Shown here: positions 1 to 58,600 of the stretch, piece after piece
How positions within the stretch are numbered: position 1 is the stretch's first letter
Layout of the letters: every line of letters starts with the position of its first letter
IMG/VR virus record: IMGVR_UViG_3300006056_000027
Location: 32,001-96,000 of that record
DNA: 64,000 nucleotides
DNA from: a virus
Lineage: Duplodnaviria; Caudoviricetes
Direction: 5' to 3' (one strand)
Made by a program: the position numbers and the translations under genes
Notes under the pieces: generated by a model
The model's input: only the letters and a program-made list of their open reading frames with translations
What the model was told of the DNA's origin: nothing
The model's database searches: none

Positions 1-2
1 AT

Positions 3-596
3 GGCGCTATAGGTAAAAATAATACTTTGCCTTGGCGAATTCCTAGTGAATTAAAACATTTTAAAAAATATACAGATGGCAAGATTGTTGTTTGTGGTAG
101 AAAAACTTTTGAATCTCTACCTTTCTTATTGAAGAATAGACATATGTTTGTCTTATCTAAAAATGAGAAAACTCTTGATCTCATGCAAGAACGTGCAGAT
201 TTGTTTAAAGAAAAGAATCAACAAGATCCTCCTTTCTGTGCATTAGTAAAATCTATGTCGCAATTTATTGAGACATATGATGGCTGGTTTGCAGATACTC
301 ATGAGGAGATATGTATTATAGGTGGAGCATTCATATATGAACTGTTTTACCCATATGCAGATAAAGTTGTTTATACGTTAGTGCATACTAGTATTGACGG
401 TGCTGATGCTTTTTTTGAAAAACCTAATAAGGCAATTTGGAGTATAACTAATACTCTGGCCACGCAGGTTCAGGAAGAAGGCGATGAATTTCCTTATTCA
501 ATTTATGAAGTAACGAAAAACAAATCGGCGGAAATTATTTCTATGAAAACACGTAAAGTGCTTACAGATGTGGAAATAATGAAATTAAGAATGTAA
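3..596 (+). CDS. folA: Dihydrofolate reductase (5'-truncated by window edge)
   Basis: Frame is open from base 3 (GAIGKNNTLPW). Motifs LPWRIPSELKHFK, VVCGRKTFESL, IIGGAFIY and DAFF are present. True start lies upstream of the window. Confidence 0.93.
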   Translation, partial: GAIGKNNTLPWRIPSELKHFKKYTDGKIVVCGRKTFESLPFLLKNRHMFVLSKNEKTLDLMQERADLFKEKNQQDPPFCALVKSMSQFIETYDGWFADTHEEICIIGGAFIYELFYPYADKVVYTLVHTSIDGADAFFEKPNKAIWSITNTLATQVQEEGDEFPYSIYEVTKNKSAEIISMKTRKVLTDVEIMKLRM

Positions 597-631
597 TTTT
601 TATTGTAAGTTTAGACGGTTAGGAGTAAAAT

Positions 632-1006
632 ATGGCATTGCCATTATTGAACGGTTCAGTTGTAAAAATTTGGCACGGCACACGTGGCCACGATTATGTT
701 GTTGTTTGTATTGATAGAAATGCTAAGAAAATTGGCCTATTGAAACACACCACAATTAACTATGATGGCTCTATTCACGGAGCAGTCACAGGTGTGCGTA
801 AATGGATTCCTTATGAAGAATTAGGAACACAAAAAATTGTCCCACGTATCGCGAGAGTGGTAGGCGTAAGACAAATTGATAGTACACAATTAGCAAACTT
901 CTTTAGCGAAATTGGCGTTACTAATGTTGCTGCTGTTGGCCATGTACACAATGTTGTAACTGCCATCGACACAGCTAATGATGCTCGTCAATTCGCTATG
1001 TTGTAA
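632..1006 (+). CDS. Hypothetical protein
   Basis: 124-aa ORF with AGGAG Shine-Dalgarno at 621-625; no family recognised. Confidence 0.7.
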   Translation: MALPLLNGSVVKIWHGTRGHDYVVVCIDRNAKKIGLLKHTTINYDGSIHGAVTGVRKWIPYEELGTQKIVPRIARVVGVRQIDSTQLANFFSEIGVTNVAAVGHVHNVVTAIDTANDARQFAML

Positions 1007-1020
1007 TACATAGGTAGATA

Positions 1021-1407
1021 ATGACTCAGAATATTTCTGTACAATATTTCCCGCCTAAAGGTGATGCAAAACCTTCAGATTTAGGTGGTGGATATGTTAC
1101 TAGTGGAATTTTAAAAACAAGTTTTAGACTTGTTAAGACAGATAAGAATGAACATGGATTCTTTCCTTCTTTCCCTAGTAAGAAAAACGAAACAACAGGT
1201 GAATGGAAAGAACTTGTTGAATTCCCTAATGGGGAAGCAAAAGAACAGTTTATTGCGCTCGTCAAGGATAAAATCCAAGCTGGCGGAGGTAATAGACCAA
1301 CTCAAGCTACAGGGCAACGTCCAGCTACGGCTGCTACTGCTAATAATATTGCTCGTCAAAAACCTCCAGCAATGGGCGTTCCTGGTGAGACTGGTATTCC
1401 TTGGTAA
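1021..1407 (+). CDS. SpoVG-like nucleic-acid-binding protein with disordered tail ending GIPW
   Basis: FRLVK..EHGFFPSFPSKK..TGEWKELVEFPNGEAKEQF resembles SpoVG (GLFVAMPSRK..GEFRDIAHPIN..RE). A low-complexity Gly/Ala/Thr linker and a terminal IPW resemble an SSB C-terminal tip. Confidence 0.6.
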   Translation: MTQNISVQYFPPKGDAKPSDLGGGYVTSGILKTSFRLVKTDKNEHGFFPSFPSKKNETTGEWKELVEFPNGEAKEQFIALVKDKIQAGGGNRPTQATGQRPATAATANNIARQKPPAMGVPGETGIPW

Positions 1408-1413
1408 TAGCTA

Positions 1414-1878
1414 ATGACGGATGTGCAAAAGAATTTAACTAGTTCACAATTCACATTATTTAAAGGTAAGTCTGCAATGAGAATGCAGCTCCAGAAACCA
1501 GAACGTCTCATTGAAGACAAGTATAAGACTGGCTGTATATTCTTGCAGATGGCTCCATTTAAAGAAGAAAAAAACGGAACACGCATATACTCTTGGGAAG
1601 ATCTAAAGATTTCAGTTAAACTTGGAATTAATGATTTAACTCAATTGATATACGCTTTTGATTCTGGCGGAGAAACTAATCTATTTCATCAATTTAACGA
1701 AAGCACTAAAACTATTGCTTTAAAAGTTAATGGTGATAGAGGATGGTTCTTATCTATTAATGAATCAAAAAAAGATGGAACTAAGTCAAACTTAAGCATT
1801 CCTGTTTCAAGGGAAGAAGGATACGCAGTATCTATAATGTTGAAAACAGCATTACCTCTTCTTCATAATTGGTTTTAA
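1414..1878 (+). CDS. Whirly-like ssDNA-binding protein
   Basis: FKGKSAM (Whirly KGKAAL), FLQMAP..RIYSW, LFH, GWFLSI, SIPVSREE and LPLLHNW are colinear with the recalled plant Whirly consensus. Confidence 0.75.
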   Translation: MTDVQKNLTSSQFTLFKGKSAMRMQLQKPERLIEDKYKTGCIFLQMAPFKEEKNGTRIYSWEDLKISVKLGINDLTQLIYAFDSGGETNLFHQFNESTKTIALKVNGDRGWFLSINESKKDGTKSNLSIPVSREEGYAVSIMLKTALPLLHNWF

Positions 1879-1900
1879 TTTTAATAGAAGGTAAATTTTC

Positions 1901-2167
1901 ATGGCTAATGAAAACAAAGCTCTTGCAAAACTGTCAGCAGCAGCAGCTCTAGCGGGTGTAAGTGCGGCAGCAAAAGCAGCAGCAGCAGCAAAGGTAGTAG
2001 CAGCAGCTGTTCCACAAAAAGCAAATCCGTTAGCGGCATTTGTTAAAACTACTCCTGCTGTCAAAGCGATTCAGGATTCAGTAAACGTATTTGATGTTCA
2101 AGCTGTTAAAAGCATTGAGATCATTGTACGTATTAATGGCAAAGACAACGTAGTGTTTTCACTATAA
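1901..2167 (+). CDS. Ala-rich hypothetical protein
   Basis: 88 aa with GCA-run-encoded Ala/Lys tracts; strong leader TAGAAGGTA at 1885-1893. Confidence 0.7.
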   Translation: MANENKALAKLSAAAALAGVSAAAKAAAAAKVVAAAVPQKANPLAAFVKTTPAVKAIQDSVNVFDVQAVKSIEIIVRINGKDNVVFSL

Positions 2168-2206
2168 TTGTCACAATCAATCAAAAATTTTTAGAAGGTA
2201 TTATTC

Positions 2207-2398
2207 ATGTCTAAGTCAATTCGCGTTATTTACGGTACAGAAATAGATCAAGTCGTTGATGGCGATTCAAAACCAGCAGATATCATTGCTGCATTAACCC
2301 CAACTTACAAAGAGTTAGCTGACTCCGAGTTCACATTGAAAGATGAAGGCGATTACAATGTAATGCGCATCACCTTGAAACAAGGCCGTAAAGCTTAA
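2207..2398 (+). CDS. Prokaryotic ubiquitin-like protein (PRTRC protein C / Prok_Ub-like)
   Basis: 63 aa. PADIIAALTPTYKELADSEF...ITLKQGRKA resembles PRTRC-C (PEQVR..YA..YPEL..A....F.RAVGTKG). Lies upstream of E2, JAB and E1 genes. Confidence 0.7.
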   Translation: MSKSIRVIYGTEIDQVVDGDSKPADIIAALTPTYKELADSEFTLKDEGDYNVMRITLKQGRKA

Positions 2399-2418
2399 TA
2401 AGCTGGTCTTGGGGGATT

Positions 2419-2447
2419 AAGGGGCGTAACTGCCCCTTTTATTTTTT
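2419..2447 (+). terminator. Rho-independent terminator after the Ubl gene
   Basis: AAGGGGC-GTAACT-GCCCCTT stem-loop followed by TTATTTTTT. Confidence 0.8.
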
Positions 2448-2744
2448 ATGCAAACTACACAATCCTTACTTGATTTATTTAAGACATTTTCCCATTCTTT
2501 GAAGGGCTCTAATCTACCACAGCAAGTTGTGGATTTTATTGAATTAATGTCCACTGCTAAATATTCAACCTTTTTAGATGAGGAAAAAACAAAAGTATAT
2601 AGCGAGCTAGATATTGTTGCTGCCATTAATGGTATGGGCGACTTTAATAGATCGTGTAAAGTATCTGTTCTTCACTTTTCTAGAATAAAAAAATATATAG
2701 CCAATCTCCCTTCCTTTACTGATCCTCAAGAGGATTACGTTTAA
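2448..2744 (+). CDS. Hypothetical protein in the Ubl cassette
   Basis: 98 aa; TAATG-coupled to the next gene. Confidence 0.65.
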   Translation: MQTTQSLLDLFKTFSHSLKGSNLPQQVVDFIELMSTAKYSTFLDEEKTKVYSELDIVAAINGMGDFNRSCKVSVLHFSRIKKYIANLPSFTDPQEDYV

Positions 2745-4090
2745 TGACAATTACCGCTAGGGACATTGTTAACTTTCCGAGTTACATGTCATTCTTTTTC
2801 ACTGGAGCGTATTCTAATTCTAATGGATACTCTACTAGGAACATCGCACCGAATCTCTCTGATATCAAAGATATCTGTAGTAAGACTTCAAAGCTACTAA
2901 ATAATATTGTAAAAACAAACTTAGATGCTGTTACTGGCATTAAAGACTCTTCAACTACTCCTGCTGTTCATATTAATAGATTCAATATTTCCTTATTTGA
3001 TCCAGAATTAACTTTGATTAAAAGTAGAAGAAGAACTGCCTCAACTTATCATGACGTCACTATGGGTGACTATTGCAATTATGAACTTACGTTTTCTTGT
3101 AAGCATCATATGTATGCACGTCTTGGCGCTAATCCAGTTGACTGTACGTCTCCTGATGCATTAAAGCTTATTCTTGCCAATATATTTGGATTTGATTTTT
3201 CTATTCAGAATGATTTTGGAAGATTTGATAACAAATATGAATATACAAATGTTCAGACCTATTATAAGAATGCTGTAGAGAAGATGAAAAAAGGCGAAGT
3301 ATTTATTTACGGATTCTTTTCTCCTGATGAGGCTATAGGTTTATTAACTAACCGTCAGAAATTAATAGGTTCTATTGACTCTTTAGCTGCTTCTAGTCTT
3401 AGACCAATGATGGACTTGTCTCATCTTAGCAATGTTACATTATCGCCTTTGATGTCTCCAAAAGGACTTTCAAGATCTTATTTTACTTCTAATGTGTCTG
3501 CTAATTTGACACCTCTTGATATTGTTAAGCCTACAACTATGGTTCCTTTAAGAGCTTCTAGGTACTTAATTGAGACTGGTCATTCAGATGTATTAAATTC
3601 TACTTATAAGATTTCAGATGTTGTAATTAATTTTAATTGTCAAAATATTAAAGATCATTTTGTTTTGTCTCCAAATATCTTTACCAAGATTAGTAAGTCC
3701 TTATTGTCTCTTCAGGAGACTACTCAAGTTCCTGATAACATGATGGTATTTGCTCCAGCTGCTGCTCGTAATTATAATAACAGATTGTCTTCTGAGTTCT
3801 TTAGAGCTATTACAGAAGAGAAGATGTATAACCGTGCTGCTGGTGGATATATCACTGCAAAGAATCTTTGCGATGTTTCTTTTGCACTTGGTGGTGGTAA
3901 GTTTGTTACATTTATTATTACTGATATACCTAATTTGTTTGATCATAAACTTGATCTTAGTGTCAGTATGAATCTTAAATTTCATAATGATTTTTTTAAA
4001 GATTCTAATTCCGTGTCACAAGGGATGACTTCATTGGTTGAAACTATAAATGAAGCATTTATAAAAAAGGAGCCTGTTACTAATGGCTAA
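2744..4090 (+). CDS. Hypothetical protein in the Ubl cassette
   Basis: 448-aa ORF coupled on both sides; no family recognised. Confidence 0.75.
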   Translation: MTITARDIVNFPSYMSFFFTGAYSNSNGYSTRNIAPNLSDIKDICSKTSKLLNNIVKTNLDAVTGIKDSSTTPAVHINRFNISLFDPELTLIKSRRRTASTYHDVTMGDYCNYELTFSCKHHMYARLGANPVDCTSPDALKLILANIFGFDFSIQNDFGRFDNKYEYTNVQTYYKNAVEKMKKGEVFIYGFFSPDEAIGLLTNRQKLIGSIDSLAASSLRPMMDLSHLSNVTLSPLMSPKGLSRSYFTSNVSANLTPLDIVKPTTMVPLRASRYLIETGHSDVLNSTYKISDVVINFNCQNIKDHFVLSPNIFTKISKSLLSLQETTQVPDNMMVFAPAAARNYNNRLSSEFFRAITEEKMYNRAAGGYITAKNLCDVSFALGGGKFVTFIITDIPNLFDHKLDLSVSMNLKFHNDFFKDSNSVSQGMTSLVETINEAFIKKEPVTNG

Positions 4091-4799
4091 AACTGTTTTT
4101 AATATGGAAATTCTTGATGATGGCTCTATGGTTATAGAATCAACTGATGGATCCGTTAAGTCTAAAAAGACAACATCTTTAGGTTACTTCCTAGAGACTT
4201 TTGGTAGTATGTTCAATAGTATTGAAACTCCTATATTGCCATTAAATTGTAGAAAAATTATCAAATCAAGTACCAATGAATTGTATATATTTGAGTATCC
4301 TTCTGCTTATAGAAGAATCACTTATGATGATGTTCATTATGAAAATGTGCTTTGTCCAAGAACTATCTTTATTGTTAAACTGGCCGTTGATGGTGCTGGT
4401 GCTAAAACTTTAGTTAAGGCTAATTTCTTTATTCCAGATAACATTAGTCCATTTAGTTTAGATATGCCTTTGCATACTTGGATCTTTAATAACTTTAAAG
4501 AAGGCACTATTTGTTGGGGCACCAATGAAAGTACCGCTAGAAAACTATTAACAAACGATCCATCTACGTATGCTGGTTTGTTTAATGTTTATATTGGTTC
4601 AAAATTTAATGACCATTGGCCTCAACAGGTTAATACTGCTGCGTTTATCAAAGATACTCCCGATGCTATTGGTCGTCCGCATATGTTAAAAATTATTTTA
4701 GGTTTGCAAAATAAACAGGTGTTTCCTGATTCTGCATTAACCAAAACTCCAATCACTTTAAGACAAATTGTTGTCGATTACAATTCTGGAAAATTTTAA
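4083..4799 (+). CDS. Prokaryotic E2-like conjugating enzyme (PRTRC protein B / Prok-E2_D-like)
   Basis: ETPILP, PRTIF, PLHTWIFNNFKEGTICWG (E2-type N..G.IC motif with putative catalytic Cys) and SKFN. Confidence 0.75.
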   Translation: MAKTVFNMEILDDGSMVIESTDGSVKSKKTTSLGYFLETFGSMFNSIETPILPLNCRKIIKSSTNELYIFEYPSAYRRITYDDVHYENVLCPRTIFIVKLAVDGAGAKTLVKANFFIPDNISPFSLDMPLHTWIFNNFKEGTICWGTNESTARKLLTNDPSTYAGLFNVYIGSKFNDHWPQQVNTAAFIKDTPDAIGRPHMLKIILGLQNKQVFPDSALTKTPITLRQIVVDYNSGKF

Positions 4800-5923
4800 T
4801 GTCCAATTTGATGTCTGTGCTCTTAGGTTCTAAGGGTGAATCTAAAATTGAAGATCTAGAATCTACTAAGCAATTTTGTACTGGTTTATTTAAAAATGGC
4901 TTATGGGAAAGACGTAAGACGGATTTAGGTTATTTTACTCATCAGCTAAATAATATTGAGATTCCGTATCTTACTAAGACCTGTACGCCAAAATTCGAAA
5001 TGTCTCTGCCTAAGATGCCTATTGGTATTTATAATGAGATTTTGAGATTCTTTTTACAGATCTATGGATCTGTTAAGTCTGAAGTTATTGTCCAAGTGTT
5101 TTGGAATTTAACTACTAAGAAGTATGAATTGTACGTTCCTGTACAAAAAGTTGCTGGCGCTTCTATCGTTCTAGAAAGAAATCTTGGGCCAATGATTGAT
5201 CCTAATATGGCATGGATTGCTGACATTCATAGTCATAATGTTATGGGTGCTGGATTCTCTGGTACTGATACGAATGATGAAAAATCTACTCGTTTGTTTG
5301 GTGTTATTGGTACTATTACTACTAAACCAACAAGTGCTTGGAGAGCTGGATGCAATCAGAAGTTTGTAACTTTACAAATGATTGATATCTTTGATTCCGA
5401 ATCTACAGAAGTGTTTGCTATTGATCCAGAGGCAATCAAAAACGTTACTGAATTTCGACCTGCCGTGGTTATAAGCTATCCGCCATTAGGTAATCGTATT
5501 CAAAGCCAAGCTACCGTAAGAGATGCTCATGGTAGAATTATTTCTCCTCATGTTAAGTATCCTGTTACTGGTGTTCCTATTAGTCCAGAGCGCTATCCAA
5601 AAGGCGACTTTGATTATATGGCGTATTTAGATTATCTATCCGACGGAGATGAGTCTGCTGATGAATGGGCCAAGCCAATTTATTATGATGCTGTAACTGA
5701 TTTTATTAAAACCTTTAAGGCTTGGGTTTCCTCTGTCAATGATGGAGATGATAGTCAGGCTATTAATAGACAGCTGATTTCAGATTTCTGCGATATGATT
5801 AGCGAATGCGATATGATGGAACAAGATTTTATTGAAGATGTTATTAACGAGCTATCATTACACGCCTCTAGTAGAGAGTGGATTGATATTGTTAAGCATG
5901 CATCAGACTTAGGAGGATTTTAA
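4799..5923 (+). CDS. JAB/MPN+ metallopeptidase (PRTRC protein A-like) with acidic C-terminal extension
   Basis: SEVIV (catalytic Glu), VPVQKVAGAS, DIHSHNVMGAGFSGTDTNDE (HxH..S..D) and FGVIG. Confidence 0.88.
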   Translation: MSNLMSVLLGSKGESKIEDLESTKQFCTGLFKNGLWERRKTDLGYFTHQLNNIEIPYLTKTCTPKFEMSLPKMPIGIYNEILRFFLQIYGSVKSEVIVQVFWNLTTKKYELYVPVQKVAGASIVLERNLGPMIDPNMAWIADIHSHNVMGAGFSGTDTNDEKSTRLFGVIGTITTKPTSAWRAGCNQKFVTLQMIDIFDSESTEVFAIDPEAIKNVTEFRPAVVISYPPLGNRIQSQATVRDAHGRIISPHVKYPVTGVPISPERYPKGDFDYMAYLDYLSDGDESADEWAKPIYYDAVTDFIKTFKAWVSSVNDGDDSQAINRQLISDFCDMISECDMMEQDFIEDVINELSLHASSREWIDIVKHASDLGGF

Positions 5924-7284
5924 TGGACGACGTACAATTAGAGAATATGAAAAGCTCTCTTGCTTATCAGATTAAAAATCATCAATCTTCTGTTATTGGT
6001 GTTCAACTAATACATAGCTCCTTGAATACTTTATTTAAACAATCTATTTTTAATAAAGCTATTACAGAAACCTTAATGCAGGGTTTGTTAGTTGACTCTA
6101 AAACTATTACATCAATTGTTATTAATGGATGTGGTGGCACTGGAGGCTGGTTCTTGCCTAAGCTTGTTAAGATTCTTAATGATGCTAAAGCAAAAGGAAA
6201 GCTTGCTGATGTTCTAGATATCTATCTTATTGATGGCGATAAGGTTTCAAGAAAGAATCTGATTAGACAGAATTTTATTGAAAGAGATATTGATAAAAAC
6301 AAAGCTGAAGTAATGTGTAATAGATATTCTGGTCTTTTATCTCGTGGCATAAATATGTGCTATATAGATAAATATGTTACTAGTAAATCTATTCTTGAAA
6401 CCTACAACCCTTTAATTGCTGGTAAGTTTGTAGATGTTCAAAGCTTGCCATATATGGGGACCAATAGAGGTGCTAATAGAAACACTGTTTTAATTCTTAA
6501 CTTTGTTGATAATGCTGTTAGTAGAAAAGTAATCCATCAAAGCGCTATCAATATTGGCAACACTGGCATGACCGATGCTGTTGTTATTGACGCTGGTAAC
6601 AACTCTTATAATGGACAGGTTATAGTCTCTTCCTATCCACATGTTTTACCTTCTAATTATTATATAAATTCTTCTGATGAATTGTATGATAATGAGGCTG
6701 TTAAACTAGAGAATTGTGCTGATGCTGATTTGGCTGCTAATAATCCTGAACAATTATTTAATGCAAACGATTTTTCGGCTGCTGTTACTGGTAATTTAAT
6801 TAACACCTTATTTGCTGAAAATAGAATTCATTACGGGCAAACTGGTTTCACGACTGGTAGTAATTTAACTATCACTCAAATATATCCGTTAATGTCATGT
6901 ATTTCTCATGGTAAGAATCTTCTTTATGCTTTAGCTACTGTAAATAAGATGCGTGTTAATGAACCTATTATTGAACAGTTTAAGACTGTTGATAATGCAA
7001 AATATCTTCAGTTGGTTCAGCAATACATTTTTAGTGGTTCAAATTATTACATTGGTAGCAATTTAGCAGTAGGGACTAATTTGTTCCTTACGAATATCCG
7101 TAAATACATTAATGATGTTTATATACCTAATGCAACTATGCAGCATTCTAGTAGCTCCTATATTTCATCAGCTGAAATGTTACAAGTTAGTCTAAAATTA
7201 TATGTACATTCGCTCGAACAGGCCAAACTTGCTCAGAAGGCAAAGCCTACAAACGAAGGGCAGCAGATTGCTCTTGCAGCCTAA
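5923..7284 (+). CDS. ThiF/E1-like activating enzyme (PRTRC ThiF-like)
   Basis: GCGGTGG nucleotide loop, DGDKVSRKNLIRQNF, NKAEV, VDN..SR, IDAGN..GQV and ENCAD..EQLFNAN (putative thioester Cys). Confidence 0.92.
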   Translation: MDDVQLENMKSSLAYQIKNHQSSVIGVQLIHSSLNTLFKQSIFNKAITETLMQGLLVDSKTITSIVINGCGGTGGWFLPKLVKILNDAKAKGKLADVLDIYLIDGDKVSRKNLIRQNFIERDIDKNKAEVMCNRYSGLLSRGINMCYIDKYVTSKSILETYNPLIAGKFVDVQSLPYMGTNRGANRNTVLILNFVDNAVSRKVIHQSAINIGNTGMTDAVVIDAGNNSYNGQVIVSSYPHVLPSNYYINSSDELYDNEAVKLENCADADLAANNPEQLFNANDFSAAVTGNLINTLFAENRIHYGQTGFTTGSNLTITQIYPLMSCISHGKNLLYALATVNKMRVNEPIIEQFKTVDNAKYLQLVQQYIFSGSNYYIGSNLAVGTNLFLTNIRKYINDVYIPNATMQHSSSSYISSAEMLQVSLKLYVHSLEQAKLAQKAKPTNEGQQIALAA

Positions 7285-7304
7285 ACATATAGATACTGGT
7301 CTTT

Positions 7305-7423
7305 CTTTTGAGTCTTTTCTTGGCCAGTTTTCTGGCCTTTTAGATTTGTATGTAGATGTTAATAGTCTATGCACAAAGATCTTGGTTAGCCCAGATATCT
7401 ATAAGACTGATAAGGCTCAAAAG
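7305..7423 (+). ncRNA. Candidate retron msr/msd non-coding RNA
   Basis: 12-bp inverted repeat CTTTTGAGTCTT (7305-7316) / AAGGCTCAAAAG (7412-7423, one G-U pair) encloses a perfect GGCCAG-TTTT-CTGGCC hairpin (7322-7337) and an imperfect long hairpin (7342-7382). It lies just upstream of in-frame RT ATG 7439. Confidence 0.45.
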
Positions 7424-7438
7424 TCTATTAAGTATTTG

Positions 7439-8554
7439 ATGGATAGGTTTGATATTCACTGCTTTATGCATTCTACTACAATCTCTAAATTTAAAGATTT
7501 ATCTGATAGATTTAAAAGATTAAAGACTATCTATCTTAAGATGCCAAATTGTCAGGATTATTATCTTGCCAAGATTCTTGATGTGGTTAGTCAGCTAATT
7601 CCATTGTTTAATTTATTATCTGAATTTACTGGTTCTGTTTCTAATACTTTTATGTATAGAAATATTAAAATTGGTGAAAGGGTTATATCTATTATTAATC
7701 CGTCTTTCTCTATTGTTTTTCAAAATGAGATTAAGAAAAATCAAATTGCTATACATAATTACTTCTATGATCTTAGTGATACTTTTATTAAGTATTATGG
7801 ATTATCTGAGAATGTGTATGGCTTTGTAAAGAACAAAAGCTGTATAAGCAATGCTCAATTTCATTTAGCTAATAAGCCTGAATCTGTAATTAATTTAGAT
7901 ATTAATAAATTTTTCAATAACTGTTCTTTGTATAAAATTATTAAGTATGGCAATCTTTCTGAATTATTTTCTTTGTTTGAATACAAGGATCGTCTACTGT
8001 TTTCTGGATACCAGATAGGTGTTCTATCTATACTATCTTTTGCTACACATAATTCTGTGTTTGCTACTGGTGCTAGATTTACTCCGACTTTATCTAACCT
8101 AATATTAATTCCTATGGATGTTAAGATTAAGGCCTTACTTAAAGAGTATGGTAGATTGAATAATGCAAATATTTGTTATTCTAGATATGCTGATGATATA
8201 ACAATATCTTCTAATAAAAGTAAATCTGATAATAACTTTATTCTTAATATAAGCCTTGTTAATTCTATAGAAGCAATTCTAAATGAATATGGGTTCTATA
8301 TTAATTATACCAAGACTAAAATTTGTGGTAAAAAAGATAGAAAGCAGGTTAATAATATCAACCTTGATATCGTAAATAATTGTCTGTCTTTTGGATCGGA
8401 TGAGAAATTGAAATATAAGATGCTATATAATAATCCAGATGCCTCTCAAGAGTCTAAAGATTATTTAAAGTGTCTACTGCCATATATTAAACAAATAAAT
8501 CCAAAACAATATGATTATATAATGAGTGATTTTAATGATACACATTTATCATAA
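7439..8554 (+). CDS. Retron-type reverse transcriptase (start uncertain: 7202, 7439 or later)
   Basis: YGFVKNKS, NAQFH (retron NAxxH, 7850-7864), LDINKFF, TGARFTPTLSNL, YSRYADDITIS (YADD 8186-8197), GFYINYTKT and KQVNNI (degenerate VTG region). Confidence 0.88.
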   Translation: MDRFDIHCFMHSTTISKFKDLSDRFKRLKTIYLKMPNCQDYYLAKILDVVSQLIPLFNLLSEFTGSVSNTFMYRNIKIGERVISIINPSFSIVFQNEIKKNQIAIHNYFYDLSDTFIKYYGLSENVYGFVKNKSCISNAQFHLANKPESVINLDINKFFNNCSLYKIIKYGNLSELFSLFEYKDRLLFSGYQIGVLSILSFATHNSVFATGARFTPTLSNLILIPMDVKIKALLKEYGRLNNANICYSRYADDITISSNKSKSDNNFILNISLVNSIEAILNEYGFYINYTKTKICGKKDRKQVNNINLDIVNNCLSFGSDEKLKYKMLYNNPDASQESKDYLKCLLPYIKQINPKQYDYIMSDFNDTHLS

Positions 8555-9272
8555 AGGCTTTTCTGCTGCTGACAAACAGGGCATATTAAAAATATTATCC
8601 TTTGTTCAGATTACTGCAGAAGAATGCTTATTTATAGATAGCACGATTGAAGATATTGATATCAAAGGTAAGGATTTTATCCTATGCTTTGGTTCTTATA
8701 AGGAAGTTACTAGGGCTTTGGTTGCTTCTGGATTTTTTAAAGTTGGCGACCTTCTGGGTAAAGATACTTATGATCCCTCTAGCTCATTCTCTTTAATTAA
8801 TATTCCATACGATATGACTCAGATCTTTTCTAAAGAAGAAGTTAAGCAGGTCGTATGGTCTAAACTTAGTAAGTTTGGTGAATACTATATTAATGTCTGT
8901 GAAAGGGGTGCAAGCAAGACTAAACAACCCTCTCAGCAAATGGAACTTCCTTTTGATGACGACATCTCTATGATAGCGCCTGTGCCTATTGTAGAAGATG
9001 CTGCATTAACTACGGTTGATGTAGAAACCTTAATGGCTGCCATATCTCAGACTATAGACTTATCCGATATAGGATTAGGTAAAAGTCTTTCTTTAAGCTC
9101 TAAGATTGAACTAGATACTCCATCTGGCAAATTAGTTATTTATCCTACCAATAGAATAGCTACACCAGATGCAAATAAAACTCACTTATCTTTTAAGGAT
9201 AGCTTGGCTTTGCTAAGACTAAGTATCATGTTTGATGCTACTAAGATAAGTTTTTTTAACGACGCCACATAA
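8535..9272 (+). CDS. Hypothetical two-domain protein overlapping the RT 3' end
   Basis: ORF 8526/8535-9272 with a central linker (QQMELPFDDD); function not recognised. Confidence 0.7.
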   Translation: MIHIYHKGFSAADKQGILKILSFVQITAEECLFIDSTIEDIDIKGKDFILCFGSYKEVTRALVASGFFKVGDLLGKDTYDPSSSFSLINIPYDMTQIFSKEEVKQVVWSKLSKFGEYYINVCERGASKTKQPSQQMELPFDDDISMIAPVPIVEDAALTTVDVETLMAAISQTIDLSDIGLGKSLSLSSKIELDTPSGKLVIYPTNRIATPDANKTHLSFKDSLALLRLSIMFDATKISFFNDAT

Positions 9273-9578
9273 ATGCATATTTTTATTGCTAAGCTGATAA
9301 AAACTTTCATCTCTACATTAATGATGTATTTGTCTAGAAAGTTAATCTATTACATAGATGATTATTTTAGCAGCAAAATAATGCAAGATACCCCTACCAT
9401 AACATGTGATTATTGCGGCTTTTCATTTGATAAAGAAATTGTATATTCTCTTTACCATAAAAAATGTCCGCAATGTCTAGCAAAATTCCAATGCGATTTT
9501 ATAGAATATGACAACGGATCAATCAACCGAACAAACCACTTCCACACCAATCAATATCACAAAGCAAATGTCCATTAG
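9273..9578 (+). CDS. Small Zn-ribbon protein
   Basis: CDYC...CPQC pair; hydrophobic N-terminus. Confidence 0.55.
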   Translation: MHIFIAKLIKTFISTLMMYLSRKLIYYIDDYFSSKIMQDTPTITCDYCGFSFDKEIVYSLYHKKCPQCLAKFQCDFIEYDNGSINRTNHFHTNQYHKANVH

Positions 9579-9828
9579 CCTTGATGAATCTAATCAGTTG
9601 AATTTTACCCTTAGCGATACTTGGTCTGTCCATGAAGCTTTTGGTGTTTTATTCCTTGCTGGTATTAATTTGTATATTAACAACTTAAGTCCAGTTAGAG
9701 GTCTTCATGAAAAGCTTGATCATTTGATTCAAACTAGCTCACAACCAGCAACTACTGGCGCGGCTACTCCTTCAATGTCTGACTTATTAATGGCTGCTGC
9801 TGAACAACTAAAGACTAATAATGATTGA
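9508..9828 (+). CDS. Hypothetical protein
   Basis: 106-aa ORF in the operon chain. Confidence 0.6.
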   Translation: MTTDQSTEQTTSTPINITKQMSISLDESNQLNFTLSDTWSVHEAFGVLFLAGINLYINNLSPVRGLHEKLDHLIQTSSQPATTGAATPSMSDLLMAAAEQLKTNND

Positions 9829-10396
9829 TACTGTATATTTTGCTGCTATAGATGCGTCAATAACTAGCACTGGTATTTCGATACTGTCTGTTACGGATGA
9901 GAACAAGTTTATCTTGCATGACAAGACCACTTTGTCAGTCGGCACCAAAAAATATAATGATCCAACTAAATTTAACAAGAAAATGGATATGTATAGATTG
10001 TTTAAGTTTTACTTTGACAATTTAAAATACAAAATATCCTTTGCTGTCTTTGAAAATTATTCATACCGTTCTAATGGTCAGTTGGCTGATATAGGTGAAC
10101 TTGGTGGACTGTATAAGTCTTATTTGCATCAAAATGATATCAGCTTTGATACTATTCCTCCTGCTAGCGTTAAGCTAATAATTACAGGAAATGGTAGAGC
10201 AGAGAAGACGGAAGTAGCGGAGGCTATAAGAAAGCATGTTATTAATATTGATAATTTTACTTTTAATAATTATGACGAGACAGACAGTGTAGCTGTTGGT
10301 ATTGCTTATTCATTAAAAATGTTAGAGATAATTGAAGATGAACCTAAACAAAATACAGTCAAAAATAAAAGAGTTCGTAGAGTCAAACCAAAATGA
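9821..10396 (+). CDS. ruvC: RuvC-like Holliday junction resolvase
   Basis: AIDASITSTG, FENY, PPASVKLIITGNGRAEKTEV and DETDSVAVG. Confidence 0.88.
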   Translation: MIDTVYFAAIDASITSTGISILSVTDENKFILHDKTTLSVGTKKYNDPTKFNKKMDMYRLFKFYFDNLKYKISFAVFENYSYRSNGQLADIGELGGLYKSYLHQNDISFDTIPPASVKLIITGNGRAEKTEVAEAIRKHVINIDNFTFNNYDETDSVAVGIAYSLKMLEIIEDEPKQNTVKNKRVRRVKPK

Positions 10397-10616
10397 TCTA
10401 CTTACCTCATCTGAGTATATAATTTATTGTGCTAACTTACTTTTAGCTTTGTCTGGAACGACTCTTGGGATGGATCCTAAGTATGCTAATTTAAGTCTTA
10501 CTGATTATTTTGCACTTGAAAAAGCATCTATAGATGACGATAGTCCTTATATATCTATTGCTATGCTTGCTCATGGCCTTATAGAGGTTTCTAGTAGGTT
10601 TGAAAATGACGAGTAG
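10338..10616 (+). CDS. Hypothetical protein
   Basis: Short helical ORF, ATG at 10338. Confidence 0.55.
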   Translation: MNLNKIQSKIKEFVESNQNDLLTSSEYIIYCANLLLALSGTTLGMDPKYANLSLTDYFALEKASIDDDSPYISIAMLAHGLIEVSSRFENDE

Positions 10617-11103
10617 TGTAGATTTAATTATAGACGCTTCGCAGATGCTTATTGATTGTGAAACCTTATGCTTGACTGGTATTCAGTTTAGAGAGAAAAC
10701 TTTGGCTCAATGGGAAGAAGATTTAAAGCTTCCCACTTTAAGTGACAATATGTCGTATGCGGATATACAAAAGTATAACTTTGCGTATGTAAGATTAAAC
10801 GAAGTTATTATGTCTAATTACTCTTATGCTAAGGCTATGTATAATTTTTCTAATTTAACTTATCAGGCTGCTATAAAAAGCAAAACTAAGCTTGCCTTGG
10901 ACGATATTAAAAAGGACGCCACTAAACGTGCTCCTGGAATGGACAGTTTAGAAAAGAATATTTCACTACAGTGTATAGAAGAATTTACTGCATTAAAGAT
11001 TAATGAAATATTTTTAGATTTCTGGAAAATATATTATGAAAAAATGCAGTTATTAGACTCTAGACTCTCTAATATTAACTACATGTATAAAGGTCAGATA
11101 TGA
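10606..11103 (+). CDS. Helical hypothetical protein (possible UvsY-like recombination mediator)
   Basis: All-helical, about 165 aa, between ruvC and recA. Function is inferred from context only. Confidence 0.45.
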   Translation: MTSSVDLIIDASQMLIDCETLCLTGIQFREKTLAQWEEDLKLPTLSDNMSYADIQKYNFAYVRLNEVIMSNYSYAKAMYNFSNLTYQAAIKSKTKLALDDIKKDATKRAPGMDSLEKNISLQCIEEFTALKINEIFLDFWKIYYEKMQLLDSRLSNINYMYKGQI

Positions 11104-11630
11104 AAATTGTTTTAGCTACCCCATACGATGGTATGAATCAATACATACTAGATAATCATTGCTCTATAAGAATCTTGCTATTAAGCAGTGAATCTTTTTT
11201 AGACTTAATTATTGATTTCTGTACGAAGTACGGAATTACCGAAGATCCATTTTGGATTATGAGGTCTGCTATTTCTAACGTTCATTACGCAAATAGATTG
11301 CCATTACTTAGTATTGATTTTGTATTTGCTGTATTTGATTATTTAATTTCTAAATACGATCATCTTATTCAAGATACTCACCTTATTCATGTTTTATATA
11401 TGCATGATGTGCGTACTATGATTCTTGATTCAGGAATGATTAATGCATATCTTTCTAAGAATGTTATTAGTGTTGTGGATGATTCTTTACACTTAAAGGG
11501 TATTGGTTTACATACCCGTGAATATGTTGCTATCGGTGCCGATAGATACTATTCATTGCGAAAAATTTGCGAGCTACTTAAGGTTCCGCCTGGTAGGTTC
11601 GTACATATAGATGGAAAATTAGAAACATAA
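11100..11630 (+). CDS. Hypothetical protein
   Basis: 176 aa; ATGA/TAATG coupled. Confidence 0.65.
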   Translation: MKIVLATPYDGMNQYILDNHCSIRILLLSSESFLDLIIDFCTKYGITEDPFWIMRSAISNVHYANRLPLLSIDFVFAVFDYLISKYDHLIQDTHLIHVLYMHDVRTMILDSGMINAYLSKNVISVVDDSLHLKGIGLHTREYVAIGADRYYSLRKICELLKVPPGRFVHIDGKLET

Positions 11631-12754
11631 TGGCAAAGAAAAAAGAAGTTGAAGTTAAACAGACCAATTTCTCTCCTGAAGAAAGGATGAAAATCTTATC
11701 TTCAATGAAGACTGTTTTAAAAAAGAAATTTGGTGAATCTGTTATTGCTGATCATCAAAAGTTAAAGATAGAATCTGTATCTACTGGATCTCCTTTGCTT
11801 GATGGTGCTATCACTGGCTTTGGTTATGCTAGAGGTAGATTTATTGAACTTAGTGGTGAGAATTCATCTGGTAAGACTACTACTGCAACATTAATGCTTA
11901 TTGAATCTCAAAGAGCATATCCCGATGAGCTGATTGGCTTTATTGATATTGAGCATGCCATTAATTTGGAATACGCTCAAATTCTTGGTCTGGATATTAG
12001 TCCTGAAAGATTCATCCTTAGTCAGCCAAGTAGTGCTGAAGAAGCGTTTGAAATTCTTGGTGCATTTTCTGAGTCTGGATTATTTAGTGCTATATGCTTC
12101 GATTCAATCGGTGCGTTGGTAACTCAAGATCAGTTAGATAAAGGTATGGATGAGAATACTATTGGTTCTGTTGGCCGCTTGATTGGTAAATCAATTAGTC
12201 GTATCAATATTGCTGCATGTGCTTCTAATACTACAATTATTTGGATTAACCAAATTAGAACAAAGATTTCTTTATTCGGATCTAGTGAAACTGTTGCTGG
12301 CGGTCGTGCATTGCCATTCTTCCATTCTACTAGAATTAAGATTAAGAAGATCAATGTAATCATGGTTAAAGATAAACCTGTTGGTCAAGTAGTTAAATAT
12401 GAGGTGACTAAAAATAAAGTCGGTACTCCTTTTGGAGTTATTGAAACGGCTATTTATTTTGGTATCGGATTTGACGAATACACAGAAACTATCGAAATAG
12501 CTTATAAGACTGGAATTATCCAGCCTGCTGGTGCTTGGTGCTATCTTGACAAAGGAACGCCTCAAGAGCTTAAATGGAACGGCAAGGCCGCTTGTATTCA
12601 ATGGTTCAGAGATAATCTAGAAGCATTTACTCCATTCAAGGTTAGAGTTTTGGAAGCTAATACTCCAGAAGTTGATATTGCCTTAGCGACAGAAGTTGAT
12701 GAAGCTACAGGATTAACAAATACAGAAGTTCAAGGACTCGAAGTAAATGAGTGA
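11630..12754 (+). CDS. recA: RecA/UvsX-family recombinase
   Basis: STGS..LD, GENSSGKTT (Walker A), FIDIEHA, DSIGAL, INQIR, GGRAL and KNKVG.PF. Confidence 0.96.
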   Translation: MAKKKEVEVKQTNFSPEERMKILSSMKTVLKKKFGESVIADHQKLKIESVSTGSPLLDGAITGFGYARGRFIELSGENSSGKTTTATLMLIESQRAYPDELIGFIDIEHAINLEYAQILGLDISPERFILSQPSSAEEAFEILGAFSESGLFSAICFDSIGALVTQDQLDKGMDENTIGSVGRLIGKSISRINIAACASNTTIIWINQIRTKISLFGSSETVAGGRALPFFHSTRIKIKKINVIMVKDKPVGQVVKYEVTKNKVGTPFGVIETAIYFGIGFDEYTETIEIAYKTGIIQPAGAWCYLDKGTPQELKWNGKAACIQWFRDNLEAFTPFKVRVLEANTPEVDIALATEVDEATGLTNTEVQGLEVNE

Positions 12755-55680: not shown

Positions 55681-58600
55681 TTAGTATCTTTGTTCTCGTT
55701 TATCTCTTATGTTGACATTGGTTCTACTACCACCTTTGTCACCAAATAATGTTCTTTGTAGATTTGAAACTTTTTGACCGTCTCGTTTTGATTGGCCGTT
55801 GATATTAGTTGTTTGTCCGTATCCAGACTTTTTATAGGTAGGTGCATTCTCGGATTGCAATGGACCAAGTATACCATCGCTTGTTGAGAATGGTACAGCT
55901 TCTTTTGTCATCTCTGGTGTTTCAGCTCCTACGAACATAGCCGTTGCAGCAAGTGCAGCAGCACCAACACTTAGTGGCATTCTATTTTTATACATATTTC
56001 TTTTAGCGGCATGAAATATATCAGATCCTCTTTGGCCAATACTCTTAATTCTAGCTTCAGTATTAGCTGCTAATTCTTCAGACTCTATCATGTTTGCATT
56101 TGCCATAGTTTGCAAATACTCAATCATCTTATCGAATGAATGCACATCTCTAGCGTCTTTAATTCTTGCACCAGATCTTTCTATTTGATGAGCAAACTCT
56201 ACAGTTCCTTCGATTACGTCAGAAATACCTTGATTGTAATTCTTCATAATATTGTCAGCTAAATCAATATGTCCTTCCGCTCTCTTACCTTCTGCAAATG
56301 ATTTTACTTTATTTCCAAGCAAGTTTTCTAGAGCCTGTTTAGTTTGTTCTCTATACTCTCTTGTATTTCCACCTAGTAATTTCTTATAGGCACTTTGTAA
56401 TGTTTCAATTTCTGAAACACCCATAGTTCTTCTTATATCTTCATTTGATCTATGAGCTGACTTAATTAGACTTTCTGTAATGTTATGGATTACTGTTCTT
56501 CCAGTAATACTTCTAGACATTCTTTCTTCTGCAGATAATGTAGTATCACTATCAAGCCTATGAATTAACATATCCGTCATATTCATTGCAAGGTAAGTTG
56601 CTGGTGCCGCTAAGATCTTTCTTTGTCTTCCTTTAAATGAAGATGTAGCTTGGTCTGCGTAATATGCTGCGGCTGAATTGTAATCGCCTAAGAATGATTT
56701 AGGATTGATTGCGCCATTCTTTTGTTTAGATGCCATAGCATCCATTAAATGTTGTGACTCATCAAACGCTTTATTTTGAGTGGCCATCATAGCTTCAAAC
56801 ATTTTCTTATGTTCTGGATTCTTAAAGTCTATACCTGTCACCCTAATAGTGTCATAGTCATAGTCGGTAAATTGGCCTTTTTCAAAGATGTTTTTATTGC
56901 TGTTATGAGCAAACCCAACTTCGTCCTTGCCTAATTGTGCTGAAGGATCAAAGTATGCATCACCACTAATAATAGAGAAGGCGCCTTGTGATGGTTCACG
57001 AGTCCACATATTTCTAAGCGGCCTTATGTTGCCCTTCTTATCTTTAATCATGGCCTGCTGAATGCCACCATGACCGACATCTTCCCAATGAATGCTCTTG
57101 CTATCAATACCCATTCTTTCTGCAAGGCCGTATATTGTTGCTTTAGAATAAGCAGCGCCAGCATTCTTCGCTGCACCACTTTCCATGAATGATGCAAAGT
57201 TTCCGCCAACACTTCTAGCTCTCATAAATGAGCTACCATCTACAGTTGACTTAGAAGCAGCCTTAGCAATATTGCCATCCCCTTTAAGAAGTCTAACGTG
57301 CATCTCTTCAACTTGTGAAAGTACATCCATATATCTAGCAGCATATGCCTTCTTATGAGCTGGTTCAGCATTGATATATTCTAAGTCTGCCTTGATTAAA
57401 TCTCTTCTCTTTTTGTCTAGCTTACTAAGTATGTCTGCTTCGCCAACTTGTAAATGTCCAGTTCTATTAGTAGTTAAAAAGGATATTGGCACACTTTTAA
57501 TTTTGCCACCCTTCTTGCCATATTCTTCTGGAGTTGACAGGTTGTAGGACAGGAAGTCTCCTTGAGCGGTTAACGCGCCTTTAAGTGCATTCTTTCTATT
57601 CTCTGGAATAAAATCAAATGAATCAACTATTTGATTACCATGCGTAGCTTTAATATTGTCAGGTATTTCCTTATCAATAGCAGCCATAGACTGAATCATT
57701 CTTAATTCAAATGCTGCATCAGCACTAGGTCTAGTAATTACACCAAGCATGTCATCAGTCCATCCAGAAGCTTTTAATTGCTTTCTTTCTAGCCATGACA
57801 TTGAACCAACGTTTCCGATACCATGCAATCCTTCTCCTAGGTCAGCAACAACTCTGGTTTGTAATGCTGCTACATCTGACATTGACTTAACATTTCTATC
57901 AATTACACTACGTAATGCATTTTCAGCAACATCTCTATTCTCAACTAATAGTCTTCCGCCGCGAAGATTATCTAAATCCTGTAAGCCTTTTGTATCATTG
58001 TTTTTAGATGCAAGGTTTCTTAGCGTTACAAACAGATCAGAATTGCCTTTAAAGTCCATCTGAGACTGAATGAATATAGATGCCTTGGTTTTAGATAGCT
58101 CGTCGCTTTTCGCATCCTGGAGTATCTTAACGGCATTCCCAAATAGTCCTTTCTCATTAAGCTTGTTGGCATCTGTAAGAGTTTGTATAAGCTTGTTGTG
58201 GTCATATAGTGCATCAGCTCCAGAGTCTTTTGCTCCAAGCATAATATCGCCAGCTATCCCAAATCTATTTACAAGATGCTTTGCAGCGCCATCTATATTT
58301 CCAGATGTCATTAATGAATTGATTTGTAGTTTTGCAACATCAGCATTTGCTGTATAGCCTTTTAGTGCGTATCTTTTTCTTCTTAATTCTAAGACATAAT
58401 CTTTGAAGCCTTTAGACTTTTCATCAATTGAATATCCAGAAGCACTTGAGTCGAATGAAATAATACCTGACCTTCTTAGGTTCTCCATTGTTGATATGGC
58501 TTTAAACTGGCTATCTGTAACTGATGTGTAACCAGCTTTAGAAGATGTACCAAATAGTTTTAACCATCTTTGTATTGATGCGTCAAATGATGCTTCTACG

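Follow-up and report, generated by a model that had tools for sequence, protein, structure and literature searches.

Work on bacterial conjugation of ubiquitin-like proteins (Ubls) has to date dealt with its role in host defence against phages, in the CBASS, Bil and Bub systems. The PRTRC families (NCBIfam TIGR03734-03742) correspond to a further class, the type 6d operons of plasmids, integrative and conjugative elements and genomic islands (PMC1779556), and no experimentally known function for PRTRC was found in the literature searched. Here we analyze a six-gene cassette at positions 2207-7284 of a 64,000-nucleotide stretch of phage DNA (the window), which comprises bases 32001-96000 of the IMG/VR record IMGVR_UViG_3300006056_000027 (120,647 bp; CheckV completeness 66%). 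An earlier note, made from the sequence alone, had called this locus a PRTRC-like protein-tagging pathway, and that wording is right: its E1 and JAB proteins match PRTRC_ThiF (E 8e-18) and PRTRC_A (E 1.6e-9) respectively, both under the curated cut-offs. We propose that the operon encodes a phage-owned, cysteine-based E1-E2 cascade that would attach a 63-residue beta-grasp tag through its Ala63, with the JAB peptidase acting as maturase and probably as editor, and we give this reading a probability of roughly 0.7.

Six plus-strand open reading frames (ORFs) lie within 2207-7284, encoding the tag, p98, p448, an E2 candidate, JAB and E1. These and the element separating the first two are as follows.

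2207..2398, plus strand: Ubl63, putative 63-aa beta-grasp modifier (model, fold matches, family alignment)
2419..2438, plus strand: GC-rich hairpin and U-tract between the Ubl stop and the p98 start
2448..2744, plus strand: p98, small conserved protein (alignment of relatives)
2744..4090, plus strand: p448, fast-evolving protein of 448 aa (alignment of relatives)
4083..4799, plus strand: E2-like carrier protein, 238 aa (Prok-E2_D relatives, invariant C144)
4799..5923, plus strand: JAB/JAMM metallopeptidase, 374 aa (PRTRC_A match, invariant zinc-site residues)
5923..7284, plus strand: ThiF-type E1, 453 aa (PF00899 and PRTRC_ThiF matches, invariant motifs)

The four ORFs that the earlier note had assigned to Ubl, E2, JAB and E1 lie where it placed them, and the motifs it named are present and are invariant in relatives; its list of four components was correct but overlooked p98 and p448, two further conserved genes between the tag and E2. 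From p98 to E1 successive ORFs overlap by 1-8 nt, the last base of p98 being the first base of the p448 start codon, and these five genes are therefore translationally coupled. The tag gene stands apart from this chain, and is followed by a double stop, then the GC-rich hairpin, and then the p98 start.

Ubl63 ends in L57-K-Q-G60-R-K62-A63, directly followed by the double stop TAA TAA. Its predicted model (pLDDT 81) has the order beta-beta-alpha-beta-beta with a disordered tail, and its Foldseek matches are almost all ubiquitin, SUMO, ISG15, NEDD8-type and UBX/PB1 domains (TM 0.5-0.59, E 0.05-0.3), among them 8tyz, the Ubl of a bacterial E1-E2-Ubl complex. VIA-align gives Z values of 5.0-5.8 to SUMO, MoaD, FAT10, parkin-Ubl and protein G/L, all of which are beta-grasp proteins. 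The beta-grasp fold that had been suggested for this protein from sequence thus agrees both with the model and with its best matches (ubiquitin, SUMO, ISG15, MoaD, protein G/L). A word search with the single Ubl63 sequence recovers no relatives, and no longer or fused forms of the tag are found by word search. Homologues from syntenic loci were used to seed a profile search, which yielded 20 proteins of 41-68 aa, and the family alignment comprises 18 sequences. Within the alignment G60 is invariant, K62 and A63 are at least 90% conserved, and 0-10 variable cap residues follow A63, mostly ending in alanine; examples of relatives' ends are ..KALAFA, ..KAAVIA and ..KAV. All 18 members were scanned against Pfam, NCBIfam, PHROGs and PADLOC, with nothing beyond noise. 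The family has the properties of a beta-grasp modifier: a beta-grasp fold, a flexible tail, a small terminal residue, and variable caps beyond it.

The likely position of the reactive end comes from Bacillus phages KLEB27-3, WH1 and Edson, in which the gene at the tag position is a head-to-tail array of 4-5 units, each of them matched by the window tag profile. KLEB27-3 gp199 contains four near-identical 57-aa units (with few substitutions), each beginning M-[AT]-R-T-V-K-Y-G and ending K-A-G-V-K-G, with a cap, MPRIVVK, past the last unit, and WH1 gp211 and Edson_2080 contain five units each, ending Q-A-G-T-K-G. The terminal Gly of the Bacillus-phage units aligns with A63 of the window tag (..K-A-G-V-K-G with ..K-Q-G-R-K-A), and so our reading of the sequences, taken from the unit boundaries of these repeats, is that A63 would be the reactive C-terminus. 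Since no residues follow it, the window tag would be encoded in its mature, uncapped form, and most of its relatives would need trimming. The array layout is that of eukaryotic polyubiquitin and implies cleavage past the terminal Gly, for which the product of the adjacent JAB gene is the obvious candidate enzyme. The poly-Ubl genes add independent support for a role in Ubl conjugation. WH1 also encodes a second, solitary Ubl-like domain (gp146, 82 aa, L027:4835-5083; tag profile E 3.4e-5) that lacks the Gly-x-Lys-Gly tail and may be a non-conjugatable paralogue.

The hairpin at 2419-2438 has an 8-bp stem with 5 GC pairs, followed by TTATTTTTTA, and is terminator- or attenuator-like. A GC-rich stem-loop of different sequence occupies the same position in five related contigs (L006, L008, L016, L017 and L018), with folding z values of -2.3 to -4.4; that of the window's own hairpin is just -1.2. 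Because a terminator-like hairpin lies past the tag gene here and tandem tag units are present in the Bacillus phages, two routes to the same end, tag production appears to exceed that of the enzymes.

The E1 protein falls within the ThiF superfamily, matching PF00899 with 31.7 bits, above the 28.1 cut-off. Its best NCBIfam match is PRTRC_ThiF (E 8e-18, 64.6 bits, cut-off 144.75; profile positions 12-225 of 245), with a further match to the ThiF/ThiS-adenylyltransferase model TIGR02356 (5e-6) and a weak one to the PADLOC E1-E2 (Cap2-type) models (1.6e-5). Within an adenylation domain of approximately residues 60-322, G69-x-G71-G72-T-G74-G75, R115-Q-N-F118, D196 and C265 (in ENCAD; codon 6715-6717) are invariant in the seven sequences aligned. 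The tail of about 130 aa that follows (residues ~323-453) is poorly conserved and ends ..IALAA in the window. These tails mostly end Ala-Ala (window 7270-7284, ..IALAA; relatives ..SRAA, ..LIAA, ..SKAA and ..EQQA), the ALAA end of the window protein resembles that of the ssrA degradation tag, and many of the tag caps are Ala-ended as well (..LAFA, ..LALA). The Ala-ended E1 tails and caps could be a built-in protease signal, or this could be coincidence.

Alone, the E2 candidate gives a sole NCBIfam signal, to PRTRC_B (E 0.008, 15.6 bits, cut-off 131.45). In an exhaustive phmmer search, 1.84 billion representative proteins yielded 52 relatives of 210-256 aa. An alignment of 51 sequences has no variation at P92, C144 and G146, and conservation of at least 90% at W145. 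The candidate catalytic residue is C144 (codon 4512-4514), in I-C-W-G. Pfam Prok-E2_D (PF14460) is matched by 29 of the 51 family members (best E 7e-13), and the matches span the Cys region. The AlphaFold model built on this alignment (pLDDT 94, pTM 0.80) has an extra N-terminal beta-beta-alpha domain (residues 1-48); with residues 49-230 in VIA-align against 48,161 chains, UBC enzymes account for roughly half of the best 50 rows (Z 3.5-4.5, 107-135 aligned residues, root-mean-square deviation ~4 A), and the remaining rows match only the extra N-terminal 48 residues. We regard the predicted fold as supportive, not decisive, with the sequence bridge to Prok-E2_D weighing more; together, the bridge and the weak UBC matches are consistent with the UBC-like nature that the earlier note had supposed for 4083-4799. 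The only PDB sequence matches of the E2 profile are to papillomavirus L1 (E ~0.05), which shares 'GICWG', and these were taken as chance.

The best match of the JAB protein is PRTRC_A (E 1.6e-9, 37.6 bits, cut-off 101.8), and that to Prok-JAB (PF14464; E 4e-4, 20.7 bits) is under the gathering score of 25. Residues E95, H144-S-H146, S154 and D157 are invariant, which leaves the JAMM zinc site intact, and it is from this motif and the PRTRC_A match that we assign the protein to the JAB/JAMM family. A JAB-N domain contains invariant W36 and R39, and the C-terminal extension is about 180 aa (residues ~192-374), with its last ~80 residues conserved; the earlier estimate of 130-150 aa for each extension was too short for JAB. 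The window JAB keeps its catalytic residues although the window tag needs no trimming, and we therefore infer that it also reverses or edits conjugates.

Several relatives have a divided JAB gene, with the break at the HxH motif (window residues ~144-147) or just past it. Group I introns (Rfam, 79-81 bits) lie in the gap at L004:2798-3034 and L006:11141-11376 and in Acinetobacter phage ME3 (L010:4904-5240), and gaps are also present in L003 (~1705-2016) and L018 (~8373-9414). The two ME3 halves are annotated separately, one as 'PRTRC system protein A' and the other as a hypothetical protein; a tRNA-Met and small ORFs lie in between. In L007 (10710-11860) the JAB frame shifts near residue 100, the tblastn pieces overlapping at 11009-11015, which reflects either a frameshift or an assembly error. 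The window JAB gene is uninterrupted.

The two genes between tag and E2 are conserved in different ways. p98 is marked by an AKYSTF motif and by C70, which is invariant, and its C-terminus is acidic-aromatic (..QEDYV in the window; ..EDYV, ..DDYV and ..DDFV in the alignment), and proteins in the same position elsewhere end ..DDFI (KLEB27-3 gp198), ..SDFI (WH1 gp212) and ..DNDYV (Vibrio D69_0305), a likeness of motif only, with no hidden Markov model (HMM) match. p448 is conserved just at its N-terminal ~55 aa and C-terminal ~40 aa (21-27% identity to relatives), and finds nothing in Pfam, NCBIfam, PHROG, PADLOC or the protein Atlas (Atlas model pLDDT 0.29); the Bacillus phages have a gene for 510-560 aa in its position. 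A 'rapidly diverging' unknown protein has been described in type 6d operons too (Iyer et al., PMC1779556). By inference only, p98 and p448 are candidate specificity or adaptor factors, p98 as adaptor and p448 as a specificity or E3-like factor.

The arrangement is not confined to this record. A metagenome scan and a genome-collection scan provided 11 related contigs (L002-L009, L016-L018), in which tblastn and HMM searches give a constant gene order wherever the contigs reach: Whirly, g88, Ubl, p98, p448, E2, JAB, E1, reverse transcriptase (RT), p248, p101. Identities to the window proteins are 56-66% (tag), 35-51% (E2), 41-45% (JAB), 40-45% (E1), 34-42% (p98) and 21-27% (p448). Among 50,697 GenBank phage records, tblastn with E1 and with JAB finds exactly the same ten: Acinetobacter ME3 (two records), Vibrio D69, D181 and D148, Salmonella Arash, the Bacillus jumbo phages WH1, Edson and KLEB27-3, and a human-gut contig. 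The cassette is thus not a chance assembly, because its gene order is kept at 21-66% protein identity in the 11 other contigs and because JAB and E1 co-occur in an identical ten of the 50,697 records. HMMs place E2, JAB and E1 adjacent to one another in 6/6 cultured genomes examined (ME3, D69, Arash, WH1, Edson and KLEB27-3), in some of which homologues are already annotated as 'PRTRC system protein A', 'PRTRC_A domain-containing' or 'ThiF family adenylyltransferase'. With E2, tblastn against the phages gave no match, and it took HMMs to locate the gene; a DNA search of the phage records with 2207-9272 likewise gave no match, the profiles of p98, p448, g88 and p248 had no match in the cultured-phage loci, and a viral-contig collection searched with E1 and with the E2 alignment contained no related loci.

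The closest cultured carrier of E1 is ME3 (34% identity). A 1591-aa tail-module protein of the window (55681-60456, minus strand) has its only GenBank phage match in ME3 as well (KU935715.1:34645-35172, 26% over 175 aa, E 1e-6), and ME3 may be the nearest cultured relative. GenBank labels the E1 and E2 homologues of Arash (gp246c and gp248c; L012) as 'structural protein' and the five-unit tag precursor of WH1 (gp211; L013) as 'virion structural protein'; if virion mass spectrometry is the source of these labels, the particle may contain the enzymes or the tag.

A plausible course of the reaction is that E1 adenylates the C-terminal Ala63 of the tag (Gly in the Bacillus-phage versions), and that the tag is then held as a thioester on C265 of E1, passed to C144 of E2, and moved onto lysines of target proteins, with the hypervariable p448 and p98 as the likeliest specificity factors. 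JAB would trim the 1-10-residue caps past the Gly-x-Lys-Ala/Gly tail of the relatives' tags and cut the poly-Ubl precursors into units; as the window tag is uncapped, JAB here would most likely be an isopeptidase editing or reversing conjugates.

Several observations weigh against this proposal. Both E1 and JAB score under the PRTRC equivalog cut-offs. The window E2 itself has no PF14460 match, its link being via more distant family members, and its fold matches are weak (Z at most 4.5, low by the tool's own caution) and without a clear Foldseek match in the PDB. The fold matches of Ubl63 are modest (Z 5.0-5.8; Foldseek E 0.05-0.3), and by sequence the tag matches neither Prok_Ub nor PRTRC_C (the latter at E <= 1). 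No recognizable E3 is present, and a search of Vibrio D69 and Salmonella Arash with the tag profile located no tag gene. A C-terminal alanine is also unusual in a Ubl. Reactive C-termini of either Gly or Ala do have a precedent in the cGAS C-termini conjugated by Cap2 (PMC10097602).

The cassette is embedded in a block of plus-strand genes for replication, recombination and nucleotide metabolism, in which the following features flank it.

27-596, plus strand: DHFR (neighbour, family-library match)
1414-1878, plus strand: Whirly-like ssDNA-binding protein (neighbour, family-library match)
1901..2167, plus strand: g88, 88 aa, directly 5' of the Ubl gene in all close relatives
7202-8554, plus strand: retron-type reverse transcriptase ORF (neighbour, RVT_1 and retron RT models)
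7322..7337, plus strand: GC hairpin and U-tract, 38 nt past the E1 stop
8526-9272, plus strand: p248 (neighbour downstream of RT)
9821-10396, plus strand: RuvC (neighbour, family-library match)
11630-12754, plus strand: UvsX (neighbour, family-library match)

Encoding a protein that is Ala-rich at its N-terminus and conserved over its last ~35 aa, g88 was located 5' of the Ubl gene in L006, L007, L008, L016, L017 and L018 by tblastn and HMM. It has no family match in the libraries and, by profile search, no counterpart at the cultured-phage loci; whether it is part of the cassette is uncertain. The hairpin at 7322-7337, which is not conserved in L006, is a possible operon end. No Rfam RNA family was found in 1-12000 of the window. 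Two absences reported earlier, of an adjacent ParB and of nearby sulfur-transfer genes, are upheld: ParB (PF02195) has zero matches across the whole 120.6-kb record (66% complete), with matches in control genomes, and family scans detect no rhodanese domain, cysteine desulfurase or sulfur-acceptor enzyme on E1 or among the neighbours, which include DHFR, the Whirly-like protein, RuvC and UvsX.

The last of these results bears on a biosynthetic alternative, in which E1 would make a thiocarboxylate on the tag, as for ThiS, MoaD, CysO and QbsE. The sulfur would serve a thio-modification peculiar to the phage, of RNA, DNA or a cofactor, and JAB would only trim the carrier. JAB-trimmed sulfur carriers are known (PMC1779556), and the TIGR02356 match of E1 (5e-6) would suit such a role. 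The missing sulfur-transfer partners argue against it, however, as does the constant presence of an E2-like protein whose Cys is invariant, and an excess of tag, as the tandem poly-tag genes and the post-tag terminator suggest, fits a tag that is consumed and not a recycled carrier. We know of no sulfur carrier that is encoded as a polyprotein, and on balance we consider a sulfur pathway improbable. We give slightly less credence still to a joint module of the cassette with the downstream retron-type RT, p248 and p101, in which, for example, the tag is placed on the RT or its product. The RT ORF (RVT_1 E 1.3e-14, plus retron RT models) overlaps that of E1, and RT (with p248 where reached) is 3' of E1 in 9/9 related contigs extending past E1. 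Those nine contigs are syntenic throughout, however, such that common descent alone may account for the linkage; ME3, D69, Arash and WH1 have no RT within 7 kb of their cassettes, and the terminator-like hairpin at 7322-7337 separates the E1 stop from the likely RT start. The linkage being confined to this phage clade, the RT was set aside as a core part of the cassette.

A third alternative concerns purpose and is compatible with the same chemistry. Bacterial E1/E2/JAB systems are antiphage, and Bil tags a phage tail protein (summarized in PMC11601596); the phage JAB might therefore strip host Bil or type II CBASS conjugates, with the phage tag, E1 and E2 as decoys or competitors, which would also account for a JAB that keeps all its catalytic residues beside a tag that needs no trimming. 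A lone peptidase would suffice for this, though, whereas six genes have been retained jointly in phages of both Proteobacteria and Firmicutes, the tag excess points to productive tagging, and JAB groups with PRTRC_A, with no Cap3 or Bil model among its NCBIfam and PADLOC matches. Counter-defence is therefore an unlikely purpose, if a little less so than either the sulfur or the RT alternative is as an account of the locus. Returning to the proposed conjugation cascade, we rate at about even odds the further suggestion that large lytic phages of Proteobacteria and Firmicutes run their own Ubl tagging for their own benefit, with a tag made in bulk, through the terminator past its gene or through tandem genes of the polyubiquitin kind, that would be placed on host or virion proteins in the course of infection.

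If this is correct, these phages carry a mirror image of Bil and CBASS, and theirs would be the first Ubl cascade encoded in full by viruses of prokaryotes. The kit spans a wide host range, and relatives show the gene-dosage trick of eukaryotic polyubiquitin. The cultured carriers (KLEB27-3, WH1, Edson, ME3, Arash and the Vibrio D69 group) make the question of what the phage tags, and why, directly testable, and the Gly-x-Lys-Ala/Gly tail predicts that each modified lysine would retain just one tag residue after trypsin, Ala (+71.04 Da) or Gly (+57.02 Da). For the PRTRC/6d class, a prediction of 2006, an answer would supply the first function. Our literature search found no publication on a phage-encoded Ubl/E1/E2/JAB cassette or on phages Arash, WH1 and KLEB27-3, and the ME3 genome note leaves the cassette genes unmentioned.

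Compared with known systems, the locus shares parts with several. As in eukaryotic polyubiquitin of the UBI4/UBB/UBC type, the Bacillus-phage units each end in a putatively reactive Gly, with a short cap after the final unit; the window tag, in contrast, is a single uncapped, Ala-ended unit with no detectable sequence similarity to ubiquitin. Type II CBASS Cap2 and Cap3 have in common with the proposed cascade E1/E2 chemistry on a Gly/Ala-ended substrate and a JAB that reverses conjugation (PMC10097602), but Cap2 is an E2-E1 fusion that conjugates the enzyme cGAS, with no beta-grasp tag, in host defence. Bub differs in using oxyesters without catalytic cysteines (PMC11601596). Type II Bil (BilABCD) has separate Ubl, E2, JAB and E1 genes and cysteine-based conjugation to proteins (PMC10557695, PMC11601596), but it belongs to bacteria, which use it in defence to tag the tail proteins of phages, and its components are described as resembling canonical eukaryotic E1, E2 and Ubl (PMC10557695), whereas the cassette described here is phage-owned, with one ThiF-type domain in E1 and a tag of a single minimal 63-aa beta-grasp domain, and no Bil model is among its NCBIfam and PADLOC matches.

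The closest likeness is to PRTRC/6d, whose models are the best family matches of the phage E1, JAB and E2. Both have a small Ubl whose C-terminal residue is small and conserved, an E2-like protein with a conserved Cys (the phage one probably Prok-E2_D-related), a single-domain ThiF-type E1, fast-evolving proteins of unknown function, and a JAB with a JAB-N domain bearing a conserved Trp and Arg (PMC1779556). The phage proteins nevertheless lie far below the equivalog cut-offs (64.6 vs 144.8, 37.6 vs 101.8 and 15.6 vs 131.5 bits), the tag is unmatched to PRTRC_C, p98 and p448 match no PRTRC family, and the phage record is without ParB; moreover, the cassette resides in a lytic-type large myophage, and its JAB and E1 have long C-terminal extensions. 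Judged by sequence comparison, the cassette is a distant, ParB-less sister of PRTRC/type 6d and not a member of it, and with respect to the public literature this virus-owned variant of a predicted class is new.

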